Positions 3,823 through 58,825 of a DNA stretch of 64,000 bases are shown here, piece by piece. Position 1 is the first letter of the stretch, and each line of letters begins with the position of its first letter. The notes under the pieces were generated by a model. It was not told the DNA's origin and made no database searches. It was given only the letters and a program-made list of their open reading frames with translations. Position numbers and translations under genes: made by a program. This DNA is from Leptospira sp. (GTDB lineage: Bacteria; Spirochaetota; Leptospiria; Leptospirales; Leptospiraceae): assembly GCA_034439575.1 (NCBI GenBank), contig JAWXAQ010000016.1, positions 224,001 through 288,000 on the forward strand, written 5' to 3'.

Positions 3823-4455
3823 ATGGAAATTTCAAACTTACCCTCACTGCAGTCTGTGTTCTCGAGAATGCGTGAATTGGAAAAACTCACGACAGATCCA
3901 AGCCAAGTGCTCACTTTTCCTGAGATGATCGAACGTGAATTGGGTAGGTCAAAAACTAGTAACAATGGGGCTGAAAAAATTGATCCAAACACGAGAGATC
4001 AAAATTTTAAACCTCCACTTTTGCCACCAACAGATATTTCTAGCACCAAACAAAGCGCACTGCGAGATGATGGTCTTGAGTCCTTTATCCAAAAAACGGC
4101 TGAAGCCAAAGGCATCGATCCTAACCTAGTTAAGGCGGTGATCAAAACAGAATCTGGTTTTAAACCCAATGCTGTTTCACCAAAGGGAGCACTTGGGCTT
4201 ATGCAACTTATGCCATCGACTGCTGATATGCTTGGCGTGGATGATCCCATGGATCCGAAAGAAAATATCATCGGTGGGACAACGTATCTTAAAGATATGT
4301 TAACGAAGTTTGGTGATACAGAAAAAGCACTCGCGGCATACAATGCTGGTCCTGGGGCAGTTAAAAAATATGGTGGTGTCCCACCTTATGCAGAAACACA
4401 AGATTACATTCAAAAAGTAAAAAAGAATTTTTATAAGTATTCGAAAGAAGACTGA
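3823..4455 (+). CDS. Lytic transglycosylase (SLT domain)
   Basis: AVIKTESGF, GALGLMQLMPSTA, ALAAYNAGPG, ETQDYI motifs. Confidence 0.95.
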   Translation: MEISNLPSLQSVFSRMRELEKLTTDPSQVLTFPEMIERELGRSKTSNNGAEKIDPNTRDQNFKPPLLPPTDISSTKQSALRDDGLESFIQKTAEAKGIDPNLVKAVIKTESGFKPNAVSPKGALGLMQLMPSTADMLGVDDPMDPKENIIGGTTYLKDMLTKFGDTEKALAAYNAGPGAVKKYGGVPPYAETQDYIQKVKKNFYKYSKED

Positions 4456-49554: not shown

Positions 49555-50379
49555 TTAGGTATTGGCTGATTCGCCGAATTTTTTTGAAAGTTCCTTTTTC
49601 AGGTATTTCAGAATTTCTCCGAGCAAAATTTCATCTTCCGATTGGATGGAAATTGTGTTTCCTGTCCGCTTTACTTTATATTGAGCAGGTATCCTTCTCT
49701 CGGGAGATGTTTTGGTTTCTTTCCCTTTTTTATTAAAATCTTTGGCATCCCGAACTGTCTTCAAAACACCTTTAGAATACATCTCTAAAAAATTTTGCAA
49801 AGAGCCACTTTTTGCAGCCTGTGCAGCTTGGACGAGAAGGTTCTTATTTTGTATATTTACAGCTCTACATTTCGCCAAATCAGGTTTTGTCATGCCAGCA
49901 ATGGAGAGCACTTCGGACATATAACTTCGACTTTTTCCAAAAAGATCCCCCAGTTCTGCATCAGTATAACTGTGAGCATTTTTCAAAAAGAGTAGGGCAT
50001 CCACTTCTTCATAAGGTGATAAATTTTCTCTTTGGAGGTTTTCGATAACGGCAAGTTTATAAATTTCCTTTTCTGGACGGTCTAGAATTTTACATTCAAT
50101 TTCAGTCCAGCCAATTGATTTTGCCGCGTGGAATCTTCTTTCCCCGGCGATGATTCGGTAATGGTCCTCACCACGACCTTTCGAAACTACAATTGGTTGT
50201 AACAACCCATCCGTACGAAGGGAAGAGGCTAACTCATCGATTCCTTTCTTTCTTTCTTGCCTTGGTTGGTTTTCTGCTGGTTCGATTTTATCCAAACGGA
50301 TTGTTCGAATCGTTCCATCTAAATTTTCGGATTGGTAAATATCGGCAAGTGAGCCGAGTCTTTTACTTTTTAAGCTCAC
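49555..50379 (-). CDS. parB: ParB family partition protein (origin locus)
   Basis: ENQPR, GLLQPIVV, IIAGERRFHA, IENLQRENL, GKSRSY HTH. Confidence 0.95.
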   Translation of the reverse strand: MSLKSKRLGSLADIYQSENLDGTIRTIRLDKIEPAENQPRQERKKGIDELASSLRTDGLLQPIVVSKGRGEDHYRIIAGERRFHAAKSIGWTEIECKILDRPEKEIYKLAVIENLQRENLSPYEEVDALLFLKNAHSYTDAELGDLFGKSRSYMSEVLSIAGMTKPDLAKCRAVNIQNKNLLVQAAQAAKSGSLQNFLEMYSKGVLKTVRDAKDFNKKGKETKTSPERRIPAQYKVKRTGNTISIQSEDEILLGEILKYLKKELSKKFGESANT

Positions 50380-51115
50380 GGAGAACCTCCTCTAAAAATC
50401 CTTCATATTCTTGAGATTGTCTCGAAGTGCGATTATAGTCATAAACTGATTTTTTTGCTAAATGACTTTCTCCAATGGCGACTCCATCCGAAATCGTATG
50501 GTCAAAAATCCTGAAATATTTGCCGAGAACTGGTAAAATTGTTTTGGTAAGTAGAGTTTGCGGTTTTAGCTGAGTGATTAACGCACCCAAAATTTCCAAA
50601 TCTGGATTGATCCTTTTTTTGATAGAGGATATGGTCTGTTGGAGTCCCATAATTCCATCCATCGAAAATTTCTCTGCTTGGAGAGGGATCAAAACATAAT
50701 TTGAGGCAACCAAACTATTGACTGTAAAAATTGAAAGAGAAGGTGGACAGTCAATGATCGCAAAATCGAAGTCTTTTAAATCCTGGAGCGAGTCCCGCAG
50801 AATATAAGGAGCTTCCACGGAATTAACAGAAACCGTTTCCATTTCCGCCAAGCGCATGCTAGATGGAGCTATCCACAAATATTCGTTATACGCCGGGATG
50901 ATGATATCTTTTATTTTCGCAGCGTTTTGAAATAAATGCGCAAGGTCTTTGTCGATGGTCTCTGGGTTTATAAAAATTCCCGTCGAGTTGGCTTGCGGGT
51001 CCATATCGATCAGAAGGGTTTTGTAATTTTTCCTAGCAAGTCCCATAGCAAGGTTGAGAGATGTAGTTGTTTTTCCTTCTCCGCCCTTTTGGTTTGCAAT
51101 TGCGATGGTGATCAT
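50363..51115 (-). CDS. parA: ParA family ATPase (origin locus)
   Basis: NQKGGEGKTT, IDMDPQANST, IIDCPPSL. Confidence 0.95.
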   Translation of the reverse strand: MITIAIANQKGGEGKTTTSLNLAMGLARKNYKTLLIDMDPQANSTGIFINPETIDKDLAHLFQNAAKIKDIIIPAYNEYLWIAPSSMRLAEMETVSVNSVEAPYILRDSLQDLKDFDFAIIDCPPSLSIFTVNSLVASNYVLIPLQAEKFSMDGIMGLQQTISSIKKRINPDLEILGALITQLKPQTLLTKTILPVLGKYFRIFDHTISDGVAIGESHLAKKSVYDYNRTSRQSQEYEGFLEEVLRELKK

Positions 51116-51222: not shown

Positions 51223-51289
51223 TGTCGGACATCCGACATACCAAAAATTAGAAAAAAGTATCTGTTGGATTTGTGTCGGACATCCGACA
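51223..51289. promoter_or_regulatory. Two identical 16-bp palindromes; parS candidates
   Basis: TGTCGGA-CA-TCCGACA at 51223-51238 and 51274-51289, upstream of parA. Confidence 0.65.
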
Positions 51290-52672: not shown

Positions 52673-53677
52673 ATGGAAGAAACGGTTTACGAAGAGAGAA
52701 AAACTCCGGGTGGGTTTCTTGTAAAAGTGAGACTGTCAAAAATGACCTATGTCGTTTTTACAGAATCTGGGCCAGAAGTACCCAAAGGTGCCAAAAATAA
52801 TTCCATTGTATCCGTAGTTCCCAAAGTAGGTTTTTTTGGAACAGATTTTGATCTTTCTCATTTTCATTTGGGCGAATTATCTTTTGTAAACGTGAAAGCT
52901 GGTAAAATGGTGATCCCTTACCAACACGGATTTTCAAATGAAATCAAAACTATCTATCTGGGAACAGGTAGCCAAAGCGACGCGCTCCCTGTCGTCATTC
53001 AACATTTCAAAACCAAAGAAGCCTTGATGCAGGCCTGGGAGAAGGGAGAACAAGTTCAGTATCTAGTTGTAGATGAAGAGATACCAAGATCCGATATGGT
53101 GACTTTCAAAATCAGATACCCGAGCCTTAATATCTTAGTAATTAAGAAACGAATCAATACTTCTGCTGAATCGCAAGCGGCTAAACCAATCGGGAATAGT
53201 GACTCTGACAAAGGTATCGTGGACTATGATAAAGTCCGAGCCACGGATGTTGCCAAAAATGCAAATTTAAATATGTATAGCGAGAACCCAGTTTTTTTAG
53301 CTAGGATCCACCTTCGGAATGTTGAATTAGACAAGGTAAAACAATTGCTCTTGGACTTCAAATTGAGTGCGGAAGATGTTACATTTATCCGTACTTTTTT
53401 GGAAGTCATGATCAAAAATGAATACCAAAAACCAGAGCTTGAAAAATTAAAACCGCAATTGATCGCATTAAATGAAGCCTTTCGACTTTCCGTTTTAATT
53501 CTAGAATTTGGCATCGAAGCTTTCGAGAAAGAATTAGAAAAAGGATTCTCCTCGGAAATTTCTAGCATGATTTATGCGATGTTAGCTAAAGAACAAGAAG
53601 CCGCGACAGAAACTGAAAAAGAAATCGTGCTTTGGGAATGGAAACTAAGAACTCGAGAAATGATGTATGGCCGCTAA
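52673..53677 (+). CDS. Hypothetical protein
   Basis: 334-aa ORF directly after the regulator. Confidence 0.8.
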   Translation: MEETVYEERKTPGGFLVKVRLSKMTYVVFTESGPEVPKGAKNNSIVSVVPKVGFFGTDFDLSHFHLGELSFVNVKAGKMVIPYQHGFSNEIKTIYLGTGSQSDALPVVIQHFKTKEALMQAWEKGEQVQYLVVDEEIPRSDMVTFKIRYPSLNILVIKKRINTSAESQAAKPIGNSDSDKGIVDYDKVRATDVAKNANLNMYSENPVFLARIHLRNVELDKVKQLLLDFKLSAEDVTFIRTFLEVMIKNEYQKPELEKLKPQLIALNEAFRLSVLILEFGIEAFEKELEKGFSSEISSMIYAMLAKEQEAATETEKEIVLWEWKLRTREMMYGR

Positions 53678-53774
53678 TTTTTCCTCAAAATAGGTAAAAA
53701 AAGCTATCTTTTTAGGCAAAAACCTTCAAAATTGAGGAAAGTTGCTATGAAAATGCTCCAAACTTCACTAAAAT

Positions 53775-53790
53775 TGGCACGAAACTTGCT
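53775..53790 (+). promoter_or_regulatory. Sigma-54 (-24/-12) promoter
   Basis: TGGCACG-AAAC-TTGCT, exact match to TGGCACG-N4-TTGCW; predicted +1 near 53801. Confidence 0.75.
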
Positions 53791-53800
53791 GACCCAATTG

Positions 53801-54220
53801 GGCTTTGCTGGGCTAGTGTTTCTATTTTGTGGGAGTTCTATTTTTGCTAATGTTTCAGAAAAACCTATCATTATCCCTGCTGATCCCCTCCTAACTCCTG
53901 TTCAGTTAGTGAATGGTATCATTTCAGAAGTGACTGTCCCTTCAACTTCCATTGCAGTTATCGCACACGCTGACTTTTTCCCATCCAGTAAAATAACTGG
54001 GACAAAAGGGAACGGCAAAGTTAAATCTATTCGTTTAACGCATGAGACCTATTTTTCAAATTCCATTCGTTTAGAAAGCCCAGCAAGTGTGGATGATCTG
54101 AGAAATGAAAATGCTCCTTTTGGTTTTTTAGCCAAAAGGAGTATTTTTAAAATAAAATCTGACTTACGACAATCTGTGTTAAAATCGATTGCCAAGACAG
54201 GTCTTTTTGCTTTTTTTGAA
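53801..54220 (+). ncRNA. Putative structured leader/ncRNA
   Basis: 53805-53814 pairs with 54077-54086; 17-bp hairpin 54108-54147 with G-U pairs; further local stems; U-rich end. Confidence 0.45.
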
Positions 54221-54222
54221 AT

Positions 54223-54606
54223 ATGTCTCAGCCAAAGCGAGTTGCCTTCCAAAAATTTATCAATGCGATGCGAAAACTCTCAGTGGAAGTCAATGACACA
54301 GAGATCTGCAAACGCTTGGAAATCCTCATGGCCACTAGCAAAGATGACCTACCTATTGCCCAAGTCAATTTGCTCCTTGCTGACCCGAAAAGCTTCGACC
54401 CACGTGCCATCGCAGAGCCGTTTACGCAGTATGTCCGACACTTTATCTATATGGTCAAACGAAGTGGTAAGCTCCCAGCAGACCTCGCCGGCGATTCCTC
54501 AGCCACAACTGGAAGCAATCGCGGCCAAGATACAGCTAAATCCAAAAAGCTAGTTTCCGCCAAAAAGACCAATCCTCGCCCAAAAAAATCTCTCAAAACC
54601 AAATAA
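54223..54606 (+). CDS. Hypothetical protein with Lys-rich C-terminal tail
   Basis: 127-aa ATG ORF with protein-like helical N-domain. Confidence 0.7.
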   Translation: MSQPKRVAFQKFINAMRKLSVEVNDTEICKRLEILMATSKDDLPIAQVNLLLADPKSFDPRAIAEPFTQYVRHFIYMVKRSGKLPADLAGDSSATTGSNRGQDTAKSKKLVSAKKTNPRPKKSLKTK

Positions 54607-54609
54607 GGT

Positions 54610-55495
54610 ACTCCGACCTAGTTTTTACCTGCATCCAACAGCGCCCTATGCCTAGCACAGAAGCAAATAAGCAAAATCTATAGTTTTGTGTCTAAAGCAC
54701 ACAAAAGAAAGAAGATCGAATTCGATCTAAATAATTGCTTAGTTTTGGTCAATTATCTGCCAAAATCATGACTCGGTTGGATCTCCGTCTCGCTGTCTCG
54801 AATTCTTTGCCTGAATCTGGGCATATATGAATAATAATAAAAAACGGAATTTAAATGCCTAAGGAACAAGGCCAGAATTGGTCATTTGGATATCTGGCGA
54901 AGGGCAGTCACTAAAGAGAGGCCTATGCCGATTTTTCGGCCGCCGTTTTATCGCCAGATCATAGTTTTGTTCCTTCGATTGGGCATTTAGATTTTGAGCT
55001 TTTGGGTCTTTTTCAAAGTGGATTGGCTAAAGGAGCGAATCAAATTCAGATCATTCTTTTTTAGTGAATGCAGAAAGGAAGGTACATATTATTGCGATAA
55101 ATGTCAAAAAATCGGCAGTTAGCGCTCCTTCCTAATGAGAAAAATTCTCTGAATGTCTGATACTATGCCAGAAGCCAAAAGAGAGGAATTCCTTTCTGGC
55201 AAATCGCCATGATTCCATATATAAAGAAAAATGGTCAAAAATATGCTTCTGATTGGGACAGAATGTCGACATCCCTCAAATTTGAGTGGAATGAATGTAA
55301 ATGTCAAAAAATCGGCAACAGTGGGTTGATAATGGACGGGTTCCGCTGCATTTACGGGAGAATCCTGTATATCGGGGGATATTCGATCCAAAACATGACA
55401 AATTGACATGTGTATGCAATAGACAGAAGCATGAATATTTGTCAGGGATGAATAGTGCTTTACTTGGGCCGGCCACAGGCAGTAATCTCGCCCAA
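54610..55495 (+). ncRNA. Putative large structured non-coding RNA
   Basis: Many nested stems with + strand G-U pairs; no credible ORF over ~880 bp. Confidence 0.5.
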
Positions 55496-55710
55496 TGGCC
55501 GAAACAATAAGATTGCGTGTAAAATGCCACGCATGTTCCAATTTAATTGAAGGAAGTGCGAAGTATGGGTCCGGGCACTTTGTCCCTGAAGGGGTCGTAT
55601 TTGAGTTTGTAGCTGTGGGAAAGGTCGAAGGAGCCCAGGGGAAGCGAGTGAAGGCGGAAGTTACCTGCGTTTGCCCCAACTGCGGGGTAAAATGCAAATA
55701 CAATGTTTAA
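55495..55710 (+). CDS. Small zinc-ribbon protein
   Basis: CHAC ... CVCPNC cysteine motifs. Confidence 0.7.
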   Translation: MAETIRLRVKCHACSNLIEGSAKYGSGHFVPEGVVFEFVAVGKVEGAQGKRVKAEVTCVCPNCGVKCKYNV

Positions 55711-55784
55711 ATGCTTGATTCTAAGCATGAATATGCTCGATTTTCTTTCTACCTCTGAGCTAAACACAGGAGCTTGGCAGAAAA

Positions 55785-57287
55785 GTGCTTTTTAATAGTC
55801 CGATATATGTTATATTTGTAGGCGTTTTATTGCTTATGCATTGGTCATTAAAATGCCTTTATATGGGCGCAAATAGATCGCTGCCCAATAGCGTACAAGG
55901 AACTGCTGCTCTACCGGTCATTATATTGCTTATATTTAGTGGATTATTCTACTCGGCTTGGAATCCCACATACTTCGGCCTTCTAGTATGGGTTGCCGCT
56001 GTAGATTATAAAATAGCATTGCGTATTTATGCAGCCAAGACTGATTCCAAGAGAAAATTTTTACTAATTCTTTCTCTATCGAATAGCCTGGGGATCCTAT
56101 TTTTCTTTAAGTACTTTGGCTTTTTCCAAGAAAATCTCCTGGAAACCTTGCATATTTTGGGATTGAGTGCTCACTTTGAAATCATTCGTATTTTACTCCC
56201 TGTGGGAATTTCCTTTTATGTCTTCCAATCCGTTTCCTACATCGTAGATGTCTATCGGCGCAATATTTTGCCTGAGAAGAATTTGAGCCATTATTTACTA
56301 TTTCTTTCCTTTTTCCCGCAATTAGTGGCAGGCCCAATCGTAAATGCTAAGTCATTTTTGCCACAATTGAAAAATCTACTGCCCTTTTCCGAAATCCGAT
56401 GGAACTTTGCTCTTTTTCTCATACTACTCGGTGCTTTCAAAAAAGTAGTTATCGCAGACCATTTGGCTATCACTTCCGATTTTTCCTTTTCTCATGTCGG
56501 GGAGGTAAATAGGGAATTTTTGTGGATTGGCTTACTGTCCTACGCAGGTCAGATATATTGTGATTTTTCGGGGTATACTGATATTGCCCAAGGCACGGCA
56601 CTTATGTTCGGGTTTGAGCTACCTGAGAATTTTAGGATGCCTTATCTGGCTCGTGGGTTTTCTGACTTTTGGCGGAGGTGGCATATCTCGCTTTCTGATT
56701 GGTTGAAAAATTATTTGTACATACCTCTCGGTGGAAATCGTGCGGCAAAATTGGGCATATATAAGAATCTAATGGTGGTTATGCTACTTGGTGGGCTTTG
56801 GCATGGCGCAAATTGGAATTTTCTATTTTGGGGGGCTGGTCATGGATTTTTATTGGTCTGTGAGAGGTTGGTTCGAAATTTAAATATAAATACTAAATAT
56901 TTGGAAATCCGTCTGCTAATGCCAATTTATCATTTTATGTATACGGCTTTGACCTTTTTATGCGTATGTTTTCTTTGGGTATTCTTTCGTAGTCAGAATT
57001 TTAGTGATTCCCTGTGCTATCTACAGGGCCTTTTTGTGAAAAACGCTGATATTTCCATTCCTTATGCCCAATTGATGACAACATATTGGTGTTTTTTTGC
57101 GATGATTGTCGGTCATATCATAGGTCAAAAAATCTTTAAAAATAATGAATCTCTATCAATGAAGTTTGATGCTATGGAACAAACGGCTGTTAAAAAAATT
57201 GCACTTGGAGCCTTATATTCATTGGGTTTTATCGCTGTAGTGCTAATGTCTGGGAATGCTCTACCTTTTGTATATTTTGTATTTTAA
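55785..57287 (+). CDS. MBOAT family O-acyltransferase (AlgI/DltB-like)
   Basis: LPVGISFYVFQ, FFPQLVAGPI, DFSGYTDIA, FWRRWHISLS, GLWHGA. Confidence 0.95.
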   Translation: MLFNSPIYVIFVGVLLLMHWSLKCLYMGANRSLPNSVQGTAALPVIILLIFSGLFYSAWNPTYFGLLVWVAAVDYKIALRIYAAKTDSKRKFLLILSLSNSLGILFFFKYFGFFQENLLETLHILGLSAHFEIIRILLPVGISFYVFQSVSYIVDVYRRNILPEKNLSHYLLFLSFFPQLVAGPIVNAKSFLPQLKNLLPFSEIRWNFALFLILLGAFKKVVIADHLAITSDFSFSHVGEVNREFLWIGLLSYAGQIYCDFSGYTDIAQGTALMFGFELPENFRMPYLARGFSDFWRRWHISLSDWLKNYLYIPLGGNRAAKLGIYKNLMVVMLLGGLWHGANWNFLFWGAGHGFLLVCERLVRNLNINTKYLEIRLLMPIYHFMYTALTFLCVCFLWVFFRSQNFSDSLCYLQGLFVKNADISIPYAQLMTTYWCFFAMIVGHIIGQKIFKNNESLSMKFDAMEQTAVKKIALGALYSLGFIAVVLMSGNALPFVYFVF

Positions 57288-58825
57288 TGAAAAATAAATC
57301 CAAACAATATATTTTCCTTTTGTCCTTTGTTATGTTTTTGTTTGTATTTGATTTTTTATTTTTCCGTGAAGGACAATTCAGACTCCCGAATGAATCTCCT
57401 TGGAATACAAATCACTTTTTCAATTTCCTATATGAATATAAATATTTGCTTAGAACGAAGAAATCTAAGCCTAGAATTCTAATTCTTGGAAGTTCGATCG
57501 CCTATTATTCGTTTTCAGCGAATGAATTGAAAGAAGAATTGAATAAGATTACTGGCAAGGAATTTGAAATTTGTTTTTTAGCTTACGCGGGTAATAGTCC
57601 CTTGTATGTTTATTTGTTACTTGATTGGTTGTTTCCCTTGGAACCTGACCTTGTTATTTATCCTATCAATTTTATTGATTACCGATTGCACCGAACATAC
57701 GTTTTGTTCCCAGAGGGAAAAAATGAATCTGTAGATGAAGAGATACTTGTTCGGGATGCACTGACTTTTGCAGAAGCGCCACAGTCACTTTGGGTCTTCC
57801 CTTGGGAAACACTTATGGAAGTGGGAAAATCTATGACTGTGGATGAGAAGGCACGATACTTTTTAGCCAGCACATTTGGATTCTTCAGGTTTCAAGATAT
57901 TTACCTAACAAATCTGCAAAATTTGTACAACCATAGGTTTGGTCGGAACACCAGTTATCATGCCTATATGGGTGTAGATATCCCCGAGGGAATTAATACT
58001 TTGGGTTGGACGGGGAAAAAATTTTCGTTTTATCCAACGGAAAGAATGAAAAAGGATAATGCGGGATTTTGGATCGAAGTCACAACATTTTTGTTGAAGA
58101 AAGGCCCCGTGACTCTCACCTTCACAGATAAATTTGAGCGAAAACAAGTTCAGGTTTTGGACAAACCTGGTTGGTTACAAGTCCATTTAGATAAAAGTTT
58201 TTATGAAAATCCTAGTTTAGTCACCGCTGAACTTTCAGATGTTTGGTTTGCCAATGAGGCCGAGGGTGCCTATTTGGATTATCATTATGATCCAATGGGC
58301 GTTAGGCTACAGCAAAACTTTGGCTTAATCAATCCCATTCAAAACCAACAATACAGAAGGCCCGTTCGTTCAGAGGATTTACGGTATCTTGGTATGGGTG
58401 ATGCACAATATGAACGGTATTTTTATTACCGGCTACTTGAAGGATTAGAAAAACGTCCTGGAATCGGCTATCTCGTAGCATTAGAAAGGGCCAAAAAACG
58501 AATTGCCACAGAGAGTTTTCGACCCTTATTTCACTTGGGTTATTTGAAAAAAATTTCCGAAACATTTCAAAGAAAGGGAATTCCTTTGGTGGTGATAAAT
58601 AACCCAGAAAATCCTATCTCACTTTCCTGGTACAAAAACTCAAAATGGTATACAGATTACCTGATTTACTTGCAATCCTTGGAAACGGATAAGGTCCAAG
58701 TTTGGGATTTGAAAGAGGCTTTGCCCATGCAAGGATTCTCGGATTTTCATCATTTTACCTACGATGGAATGTTACAAATGAATTCGATTTATGCAAAACG
58801 AATCGGAAATCTCTTTTCTAAATAG
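57287..58825 (+). CDS. SGNH/DltD/AlgJ-like partner of the MBOAT
   Basis: N-terminal TM, LGSS and DxxH (DFHH) motifs; coupled to the MBOAT gene. Confidence 0.65.
   Translation: MKNKSKQYIFLLSFVMFLFVFDFLFFREGQFRLPNESPWNTNHFFNFLYEYKYLLRTKKSKPRILILGSSIAYYSFSANELKEELNKITGKEFEICFLAYAGNSPLYVYLLLDWLFPLEPDLVIYPINFIDYRLHRTYVLFPEGKNESVDEEILVRDALTFAEAPQSLWVFPWETLMEVGKSMTVDEKARYFLASTFGFFRFQDIYLTNLQNLYNHRFGRNTSYHAYMGVDIPEGINTLGWTGKKFSFYPTERMKKDNAGFWIEVTTFLLKKGPVTLTFTDKFERKQVQVLDKPGWLQVHLDKSFYENPSLVTAELSDVWFANEAEGAYLDYHYDPMGVRLQQNFGLINPIQNQQYRRPVRSEDLRYLGMGDAQYERYFYYRLLEGLEKRPGIGYLVALERAKKRIATESFRPLFHLGYLKKISETFQRKGIPLVVINNPENPISLSWYKNSKWYTDYLIYLQSLETDKVQVWDLKEALPMQGFSDFHHFTYDGMLQMNSIYAKRIGNLFSK

Follow-up and report, generated by a model that had tools for sequence, protein, structure and literature searches.

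What is encoded by the conserved run of small genes that lies beside the partition genes of a Leptospira replicon, and is any part of it made as a free RNA? The question arose from a stretch of 64,000 nucleotides of Leptospira sp. (GenBank assembly GCA_034439575.1, contig JAWXAQ010000016.1), which corresponds to contig C16:224001-288000 of a 4.1-Mb genome and is called the window here. A preliminary description, made from the letters of this DNA alone, had grouped five parts (a sigma-54 promoter, an RNA, a basic protein, a large RNA and a Zn-ribbon protein) into a sigma-54-inducible ribonucleoprotein (RNP) locus. Stretches corresponding to all five parts are present at the places described and all of them lie on the + strand (Table 1). 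Our analysis leads to a different and still tentative reading, to which we give a probability of roughly 0.45. The locus would be a conserved cluster whose protein genes are transcribed separately, and it would contain a conditional sigma-54 promoter inside the gene of an exported protein (open reading frame B, ORF B), a genus-specific two-frame overlap between ORF B and the gene for the basic protein, and a structured spacer that acts in cis. Comparisons were made with three sets of relatives: 25 genus loci, one from the window and 24 from further genomes of its genus; the genus together with 16 genomes of the sister family, which gives the 41 genomes of the profile counts; and 17 loci from 10 other genera of the family. 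Homologs of the window proteins bear the names of saprophytic Leptospira species.

Evidence on transcription comes from differential RNA sequencing (dRNA-seq) of L. interrogans serovar Manilae (PMC5243855), for which the 30°C rows of Supplementary Table 4 and Supplementary Table 9 were used, and in which orthologs were recognised from the coding sequence printed in the upstream columns of the table. In these rows, a gene for a conserved protein of 334 aa, which precedes ORF B, has a primary start 230 nt upstream (PMC5243855). The basic gene has its primary start at the ATG, giving a leaderless mRNA (coverage 47), and the Zn-ribbon gene is listed with three starts, a primary one 297 nt upstream and two secondary ones at 119 and 9 nt (PMC5243855). 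The small RNA (sRNA) table of the same source lists none in the spacer between the basic and the Zn-ribbon genes (PMC5243855). As far as these tables go, the parts are transcribed separately in L. interrogans in culture, and the leader of the Zn-ribbon gene takes up much of the spacer. The preliminary description had suggested co-transcription as a check and had named independent transcription of the parts as a finding that would speak against it; with starts of their own for the basic and the Zn-ribbon genes, independent transcription is what these rows report for L. interrogans.

For the organism of the window itself, a look-up listed no RNA run. Contigs from four wastewater libraries labelled RNA-Seq were also inspected, although three of the four runs were rated as probably DNA. 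Such contigs cover 53751-54769, 55085-55334 and 55518-55942 of the window. Bridges were seen between ORF B and the basic gene (54083-54560), between the basic gene and the spacer (54422-54769) and between the Zn-ribbon gene and a following gene of the MBOAT family (55518-55885), all of them weak, as the runs are mostly probably DNA. The same holds for the one contig that lies wholly within the spacer (55085-55334). The stretches that no contig covers (53291-53750, 54770-55084, 55335-55517 and everything beyond 55942) say nothing either way.

The arrangement of the genes is conserved far beyond the genus. The family order consists of parA on the opposite strand, a Fis-family regulator resembling enhancer-binding proteins (EBPs), the 334-aa protein, ORF B, the basic gene, the spacer, the Zn-ribbon gene and often MBOAT, with ORF B limited, within the cluster, to the genera g1, g13, g14, g21 and g22. 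Genes for the basic and the Zn-ribbon proteins were each found in 36 of the 41 genomes, in the same genera, and they stand in identical order next to parA in all 17 loci from the 10 other genera. The regulator and the 334-aa gene are also found upstream in most of the listed loci of the sister family. In this respect the earlier proposal, which had suggested co-occurrence across the Leptospiraceae as a check, was confirmed: the parts are syntenic and occur together.

The first of the two proposed RNAs (53800-54222) turned out to be coding sequence of ORF B. Its frame has no stop in any of the 25 genus loci, from just before the sigma-54 motif to deep inside the basic ORF, despite indels in its middle. 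The predicted product begins with a signal peptide, which opens with a short charged segment, continues with a hydrophobic core (residues 16-33) and, in the window, ends at a putative cleavage site, read as IFA followed by NV or as FAN followed by V. In other loci the core varies in sequence yet keeps its hydrophobicity, and it ends in A-x-A-type sites (for example LFA followed by NE, or VSA followed by DD). The signal peptide is followed by a conserved segment with the consensus DLPVIIPxDELLTPIEL and then by a variable region. The L. interrogans ortholog of ORF B is annotated as a 'conserved exported protein', and public gene calls are 238-322 aa long (11 proteins at E <= 0.001, one of which is the window's own ORF). 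In g13, g14, g21 and g22, ORF B is longer (330-375 aa) and ends before, or barely enters, the basic ORF.

In the window, ORF B overlaps the basic ORF over 54223-54553 (331 nt) in the +1 frame. This frame of the basic gene is open for 322-406 nt in all 25 genus loci, and the +2 frame has 5-13 stops. Outside the genus, stops interrupt the +1 frame in 28 of 28 loci from the other genera and the sister family; most of them have several stops within the first ~150 nt, and two have only one or two. When synonymous codons were resampled from the usage of the other window genes, an open +1 frame was obtained with P <= 0.001 in each of the 25 species. In a harsher test, a shuffle of codons among identical residues within the gene, P values ranged from 0.009 to 0.17 (median 0.057), with 1.4-3.0 stops expected. 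Conservation at silent sites is slightly higher in the basic gene than in its neighbours: among identical residues, the share of identical codons amounted to 0.59, compared to 0.50 in the Zn-ribbon gene and 0.54 in the 334-aa gene. On these sequence comparisons, the pattern points to selection for an uninterrupted ORF B frame.

Three further observations concern ORF B. A hairpin with an A/T-rich run at 54108-54147 had been a candidate terminator of the proposed first RNA; it was rejected in this role, as the hairpin is specific to this genome and lies in an open frame. The 24 other genus loci have no comparable hairpin with a T-rich run, and their longest stems comprise 7-12 pairs compared to 20 in the window. 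A 13-nt direct repeat (ATGAAAATGCTCC) joins position 54105 to the start region of ORF B at 53747. Also, Supplementary Table 9 of PMC5243855 contains an L. interrogans antisense sRNA of 50-55 nt (sRNA_37_7 / sRNA_30_24) opposite the signal-peptide codons of ORF B, near the place of the sigma-54 motif.

A single sigma-54 match such as the one in the window is unremarkable, since shuffles of the window yield 1.44 matches at up to one mismatch; genome-wide, four exact matches were found, compared to 1.8 expected from composition. Its conservation at an orthologous place, however, exceeds chance. In each of the 25 genus loci the motif precedes the basic ORF by 343-535 nt, with TGGCAC and TTGC invariant and the five bases between them free (GAAAC, AAAAG, AAAAA, GGTTT, AGTTC and others). 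It is exact in 3/3 g22 and 2/4 g21 loci, the other two g21 loci having TGGCGC-N5-TTGCT, and its -12 element is broken in g13 and g14. In the window the motif covers the signal-peptide codons L-A-R-N-L-L of ORF B, and across loci the residues are L-A-(Q/R/H)-x-L-(L/Q). The first Leu is encoded by xTG throughout and the Ala by GCA (33 loci) or GCG (two), and the second Leu codon is TTG wherever the residue is Leu; g13, with its broken -12 element, has TTT (Phe) there. Selection at silent positions of these codons argues for a function at the DNA level. As the genome also contains rpoN (Sigma54_DBD, 211 bits, contig C22) and three strong Sigma54_activat hits elsewhere (E <= 3e-35), which provide EBP-type AAA+ domains, the reading as a sigma-54 promoter holds; its activity and its targets are what we infer from this conservation. 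From the usual spacing, transcription is predicted to start near 53801. Since this place lies after the start codon of ORF B and no conserved in-frame start follows, the predicted sigma-54 transcript could not express ORF B.

The regulator encoded next to the cluster, which is found beside it in all 17 loci of the other family genera, is an unlikely activator of this promoter. It resembles EBPs in its lid and helix-turn-helix (HTH) domains alone: its only ATPase motif is a Walker A (GKKGTGK), neither a GAFTGA-like motif nor an hhhhDE Walker B was found, and with 14.2 bits it stays under the Sigma54_activat cut-off of 20.2 and is absent among the Sigma54_activat hits of the genome.

Side observations on promoters were made in two places. 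One of the three g23 loci (L071), all of which lack ORF B, has a sigma-54-like motif (TGGTATATGCATTGCT) at its position 4084, about 110 nt upstream of the basic gene and within the end of the 334-aa gene. A scan for sigma-70 promoters gave 7 sites compared to 5.3 ± 2.5 in shuffles and was uninformative.

The spacer between the basic and the Zn-ribbon genes had been described as a large RNA. Its length is 839-952 nt in the genus, 188-1317 nt in other family genera (188 nt in one genus) and, measured from stop to start, 78 to ~2,400 nt in the sister family. The sequence evolves fast, with 40-50% identity in most pairs of genus species, and within a clade of four species the spacers are 64-81% identical, compared to 93-98% for the neighbouring coding DNA. 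In the 25 species no recurrent ORF (same place, same strand) was found, and a search of the window with Rfam 15 gave no match at gathering score and, in 53600-55800, only chance rows at E <= 10. The spacer folds better than its shuffles, with z-scores of -6.65 for the + strand and -1.62 for the - strand in the window, -0.8 to -5.5 (+) and +0.07 to -3.1 (-) in six other species, and -9.5 (+) and -4.6 (-) for the consensus of the four-species clade against column shuffles. Double changes were seen at 20 of the 181 pairs in these four sequences, with a covariation term of -1.06 kcal/mol, and many one-sided changes from G-C or A-U to G-U keep the + strand pairs; for the genus as a whole, an identity of 40-50% makes the alignment unreliable. 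The spacer is therefore full of hairpins, with a moderate + strand bias. Of the large RNA, this folding, mainly on the + strand, stood the examination; a free RNA found no backing in Rfam, in sequence identity or in the L. interrogans sRNA table consulted.

The best conserved part of the spacer in the 25 sequences is a block at 55394-55463, in which TGTCATGTGTA is nearly invariant. RNAalifold yields only 5 consensus pairs for it, and the block is probably a promoter, operator or leader sequence. A different palindrome, CCTGT-N7-ACAGG (mostly CCTGTG-N5-CACAGG), was noticed 7-98 nt after the stop codon of the basic gene in 23/25 genus, 2/4 g21 and 3/3 g22 loci; its stem sequence is invariant, the window has a degenerate form of it, and it is not followed by a T-run. 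A hidden gene on the - strand, an ORF of 194 aa at 55119-55703, was rejected as it has no Pfam match and no counterpart in most relatives.

Taken as a cluster of protein genes, the locus would work as follows. The genes would mostly be transcribed from their own promoters, as the dRNA-seq data indicate for the L. interrogans orthologs and as may be expected for this genome. The sigma-54 promoter would add a conditional transcript, fired by one of the true enhancer-binding proteins of the genome, with environmental or nitrogen signals as likely triggers. This transcript would carry ~420 nt of ORF B as its leader and would raise the level of the basic protein, and perhaps that of later genes. 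In the saprophytic genus, translation of ORF B would run on into the basic gene, covering its first 320-400 nt in the +1 frame, and this segment would thus code in two frames. The 888-nt spacer would be composed of the 3' trailer of the basic gene, the promoter region of the Zn-ribbon gene and the long 5' leader of the latter, and its hairpins and TGCCY-N6-RGGCA palindromes would act in cis on Zn-ribbon gene expression. It would not be a free-standing RNA gene.

Several points weigh against this reading. The start sites were mapped in a pathogenic species that does not belong to this genus, whose spacer has ~665 nt and whose sigma-54 motif is imperfect. Among the 30°C rows of PMC5243855 no start is listed at the place predicted from the motif, although the motif is imperfect there and the culture may not induce. 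The residues L-A-Q-x-L-L persist where the motif has one change, and conservation could be partly at the protein level. Judged by the codon shuffle, the avoidance of stops in the overlap is only moderately unlikely in each species, and the species are related and do not represent 25 independent trials. A coding control gave consensus fold z-scores of -2.2 and -0.8, but this control is unmatched, being far more conserved than the spacer (93-98% versus 64-81%). In the stems of inverted repeats, mismatches compatible with G:U outnumber A:C mismatches only 37 to 24, and the folding signal may largely reflect palindromes in the DNA, as the - strand is also below its shuffles.

In an alternative reading, it is in the form of double-stranded DNA that the spacer acts. 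It would then represent an array of 16-bp sites of two-fold symmetry (TGCCY-N6-RGGCA) for a dimeric DNA-binding protein, for which the neighbouring Fis-family regulator, the basic protein or the Zn-ribbon protein are candidates, and the nucleoprotein complex would control the Zn-ribbon gene or the maintenance of the small chromosome beside parAB. Sites of this type are concentrated in the spacers, with 64 in the 22.3 kb of the 25 genus spacers compared to 5 in ~76 kb of flanks and a genome-wide density of 0.035 per kb. They have conserved half-sites, a free centre and a fixed 16-bp geometry, and spacers of g21 and g22 contain the type as well. Immediately beyond the half-sites, the bases pair inconsistently, which agrees more with a DNA site than with an RNA stem, and the - strand, too, folds better than shuffles. 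Between parA and the regulator gene, a palindrome of the same geometry, TGTCGGAYRTCCGACA, was seen in the window and in 14 of the 17 loci of other genera; it occurs twice in the genome, and in L. interrogans a palindrome of this type is located within 25 nt before the parA start given in PMC5243855. On the other side, folding is stronger on the + strand in the window, in 5/6 other species and in the clade consensus, and the many one-sided G-U changes preserve pairs of that strand. Moreover, the number and position of sites vary widely (0-5 per species), and in the window two half-sites are separated by ~110 nt and form the base of a long predicted stem, an arrangement unsuited to a dimer on DNA. 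We consider an array of this kind rather unlikely as the main role of the spacer.

The + strand bias that speaks against a DNA array also speaks for a narrowed form of the RNP idea, with the spacer as a fast-evolving structured RNA whose UGCCY-N6-RGGCA hairpins are bound by the basic and/or the Zn-ribbon protein and which is induced through sigma-54. The spacer keeps its length in the 25 species while its sequence drifts, as is the case in sponge-type RNAs; the two proteins strictly co-occur and are adjacent across an order; and one of them has a tail resembling histone H1 while the other is a Zn ribbon. However, matches in Rfam are missing at gathering and at permissive thresholds, covariation is weak, the best conserved block is without consensus structure, and both proteins are still conserved where the spacer shrinks to 188 nt in one family genus or ranges from 78 to ~2,400 nt in the sister family. 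In addition, for L. interrogans, PMC5243855 places the primary Zn-ribbon start inside the spacer and no sRNA entry there in the table consulted. The narrowed idea is an improbable one, and we hold as slightly more improbable the full proposal that an RNA of an undescribed family and its two flanking proteins form a sigma-54-inducible RNP universal to the Leptospiraceae, joined in saprophytes by a translated overlap of 320-400 nt and a promoter within signal codons. Of the RNP locus as proposed at the outset, then, most is not borne out: its first RNA is a gene, its second lacks support as a free RNA, and starts are separate in the L. interrogans rows. The preliminary description had also offered a CsrA-sponge role as a weaker option, in which case the spacer RNA would be comparable to CsrB/RsmZ. 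A csrA gene is present in the genome and the ten GGA triplets reported for 55019-55450 are indeed there, but this count is at chance (10 compared to 9.9 ± 2.1 expected, and 14 compared to 16.3 ± 2.6 in the whole spacer). The number of GGA triplets is at chance in 9 other species too and A.GGA is not enriched, so that the sponge reading was rejected and we give it hardly any credence. A small part of the probability is assigned to none of these readings.

The basic protein was found as described, with a Lys/Arg-rich tail: its last 40 residues contain 11 K/R and 2 D/E. It is encoded in 24 of the 24 other genus genomes, in 11 of 16 genomes of the sister family and in all 17 loci of the ten further genera. 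The NCBIfam equivalog NF047546, 'phosphatidylinositol phospholipase', matches residues 1-125 of 127 with 194.7 bits (cut-off 184), and many relatives carry this name at NCBI. In 28 aligned sequences, 23 residues are invariant within a core of ~65 residues. AlphaFold2 predicts four main helices and a short fifth one over residues 7-81 (pLDDT ~91) and a tail below 60. No Pfam family, PI-PLC included, was found at E <= 0.1, a comparison with PDB sequence profiles gave a chance-level row only, Foldseek against PDB returned nothing at E <= 0.001, and for the core there was no match in the ESM Atlas. The best match of the core in a wide fold search with VIA, the C-terminal domain of the human SRA protein (Z 6.6 over 81 residues), is below the level that is meaningful for helical bundles. 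Phospholipase C is absent among the listed fold matches, although absence from such lists is no proof. By its sequence, the basic protein belongs to the family of L. interrogans LB361. The enzymatic name phosphatidylinositol phospholipase is doubtful for it, because there is no Pfam domain, the protein consists of a small helical core and a disordered tail, and no phospholipase C appeared among the fold matches. As judged from the models, the helical core with its Lys-rich, H1-like tail suggests nucleic-acid binding. The annotation 'phosphatidylinositol phospholipase' is spreading in Leptospira genomes and rests on one study, in which the reported kcat is very low.

The Zn-ribbon protein, too, was found with the CxxC knuckles that had been described. 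C11, C14, C60 and C63 are invariant in 21 aligned sequences, and an AKYGxGH loop is invariant or nearly so. One copy is present in each of 114 family genomes from 14 genera and the protein was found in 11 of 16 sister-family genomes, with identities that range from 87 to 94% inside the genus and from 57 to 66% in the sister family, and it is named 'hypothetical' in every source. AlphaFold2 predicts five strands (mean pLDDT 83). Foldseek against PDB gave nothing at E <= 0.001, and even its best hit, an RNA polymerase I subunit (probability 0.63, E 0.83), is weak, as are the matches of the wide VIA search with the N-terminal ribbon of NrdR (Z 3.6, rmsd 1.9, 42 residues) and with Cren7 (Z 4.0, rmsd 2.8, 47 residues). 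PDB sequence profiles yielded chance rows only, and the ESM Atlas only the protein's own cluster, with an untrusted automatic name. A modelled Zn ribbon of this kind would fit nucleic-acid binding.

Among the neighbours, the 334-aa protein has no match in Pfam or NCBIfam, and its identity is 54-64% in the 17 loci of other genera. The Zn-ribbon gene is followed, at 55785-58825 (+), by genes for an MBOAT/DltB-like acyltransferase (500 aa) and a protein of 512 aa without known family; the MBOAT gene comes after the Zn-ribbon gene in 12 of the 17 loci.

Table 1. Features of the cluster and its surroundings in the window (positions in the window).
Feature	Position	Strand	Remarks
HTH_36 Rep-like protein, 311 aa	48304-49239	-	directly downstream of parB
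parB	49555-50379	-	upstream of cluster
parA	50363-51115	-	upstream of cluster
Fis-family EBP-like regulator, 464 aa	51273-52667	+	AAA lid and HTH_8 domains; Walker A only
334-aa conserved protein	52673-53677	+	always between regulator and basic gene
ORF B, exported protein, 268 aa	53747-54553 (ATG 53747; alternative TTG 53732)	+	signal peptide, open frame
Sigma-54 -24/-12 motif TGGCAC-N5-TTGCT, TGGCACGAAACTTGCT	53775-53790	+	exact consensus match
Hairpin and A/T-rich run inside ORF B	54108-54147	+ (terminator-like listing: -)	inverted repeat I2, 16-nt arms, 94% complementary
Basic protein, 127 aa	54223-54606	+	helical core (residues ~7-81) and Lys/Ser/Pro-rich disordered tail
Untranslated spacer, 888 nt	54607-55494	+	no shared ORF; hairpin-rich
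Palindrome TGCCTGAATCTGGGCA, TGCC-N8-GGCA type	54808-54823		motif hit
20-nt exact direct repeat TAAATGTCAAAAAATCGGCA, first copy	55098-55117	+	family D2; contains TGTC-N8-GGCA
TAAATGTCAAAAAATCGGCA, second copy	55298-55317	+	family D2; 200 nt after first; motif hit
Conserved block	55394-55463	+	30-100 nt upstream of Zn-ribbon start codon
Zn-ribbon protein, 71 aa	55495-55710	+	CHAC...CxCPxC

The location of the cluster beside an origin, as proposed at the outset, is fairly well founded. Next to the cluster are parAB and a Rep-like HTH_36 gene, and the cumulative GC-skew has its minimum, together with a strand switch, at ~48-52 kb of the window. In relatives the locus is found on replicons of ~265-280 kb, which is the size that the L. 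biflexa genome paper gives for the small chromosome (PMC2229662). The same paper puts the origin of that chromosome at the partition operon, together with a rep gene downstream of it (PMC2229662), and the HTH_36 protein is probably the 'putative rep gene' of its text. The spacer itself was considered as a replication origin and is unlikely in this role, as the skew minimum, the Rep-like gene and parAB are elsewhere, the palindromes are dispersed and tandem iterons are missing. The 16-bp palindrome TGTCGGACATCCGACA occurs twice between parA and the regulator gene (51223-51238 and 51274-51289), and these are its only two copies in the genome. Palindromes of the TGTCGGACATCCGACA/TGTCGGAYRTCCGACA type are candidates for a parS-like centromere site or a par operator of the small chromosome.

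For specialists, what remains of interest are the embedded promoter, the overlap, the doubtful phospholipase name and a universal Zn-ribbon protein of 71 aa that is present in every searched Leptospiraceae genome and still without a name; each of these is testable in L. biflexa.

Large structured noncoding RNAs and sponge RNAs of bacteria include the OLE, GOLLD, ROOL and CsrB types. The spacer is like them in several respects: it is long and untranslated, the genome is AT-rich, folding is better than in shuffles, and a short hairpin motif is repeated. It differs from them in that Rfam gives no match, sequence conservation is far lower, conserved long-range helices or pseudoknots with covariation are missing, GGA is not enriched and, by the PMC5243855 rows, a gene starts inside the L. 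interrogans ortholog.

The motif in ORF B shares the -24/-12 consensus with the RpoN promoters known from Leptospira, namely those of amtB and of two lipoprotein genes in the EbpA-RpoN pathway; putative lipoprotein genes are among the published targets, and the supplement of PMC5243855 gives TGGCACGCTGCTTGCATA as a sigma-54 example. In contrast to these, the motif described here lies inside the signal-peptide codons of the very gene that it seems to serve, and its transcript would lack the start codon of that gene. It is not among the three published RpoN sites named above, although regulon studies of L. biflexa or L. interrogans may list it. A sigma-54 promoter within the signal codons of an exported protein would extend the very small RpoN regulon known from Leptospira.

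The basic protein shares with L. interrogans LB361, the 'L-PI-PLC', the family model, a gene length of 384 bp and a place on the small chromosome, and both genes are located beside an exported-protein gene and a Zn-ribbon gene. According to the report on LB361, the recombinant product hydrolyses PIP2 (kcat 8.6e-5 per s) and the gene was absent from L. biflexa by PCR (PMC3790881); here, in contrast, homologs are present in all 24 other genomes of the saprophytic genus. A protein that is cited as a virulence factor is thus found in saprophytes, within a housekeeping-looking cluster beside parAB, and its annotation merits re-examination.

Overlaps between bacterial genes usually comprise 1-4 nt. 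Compared to these, the overlap of ORF B with the basic gene, known from sequence, is far longer, and it is confined to one genus. As in known same-strand dual-coding bacterial genes, two long frames are open, here over 322-406 nt in 25 of 25 loci and with avoidance of stops. A further difference is that the overlapped part of ORF B shows little extra constraint beyond staying open. A same-strand two-frame overlap in 25 of 25 species of a single genus would represent a clean natural case for studying the origin of overlapping genes.

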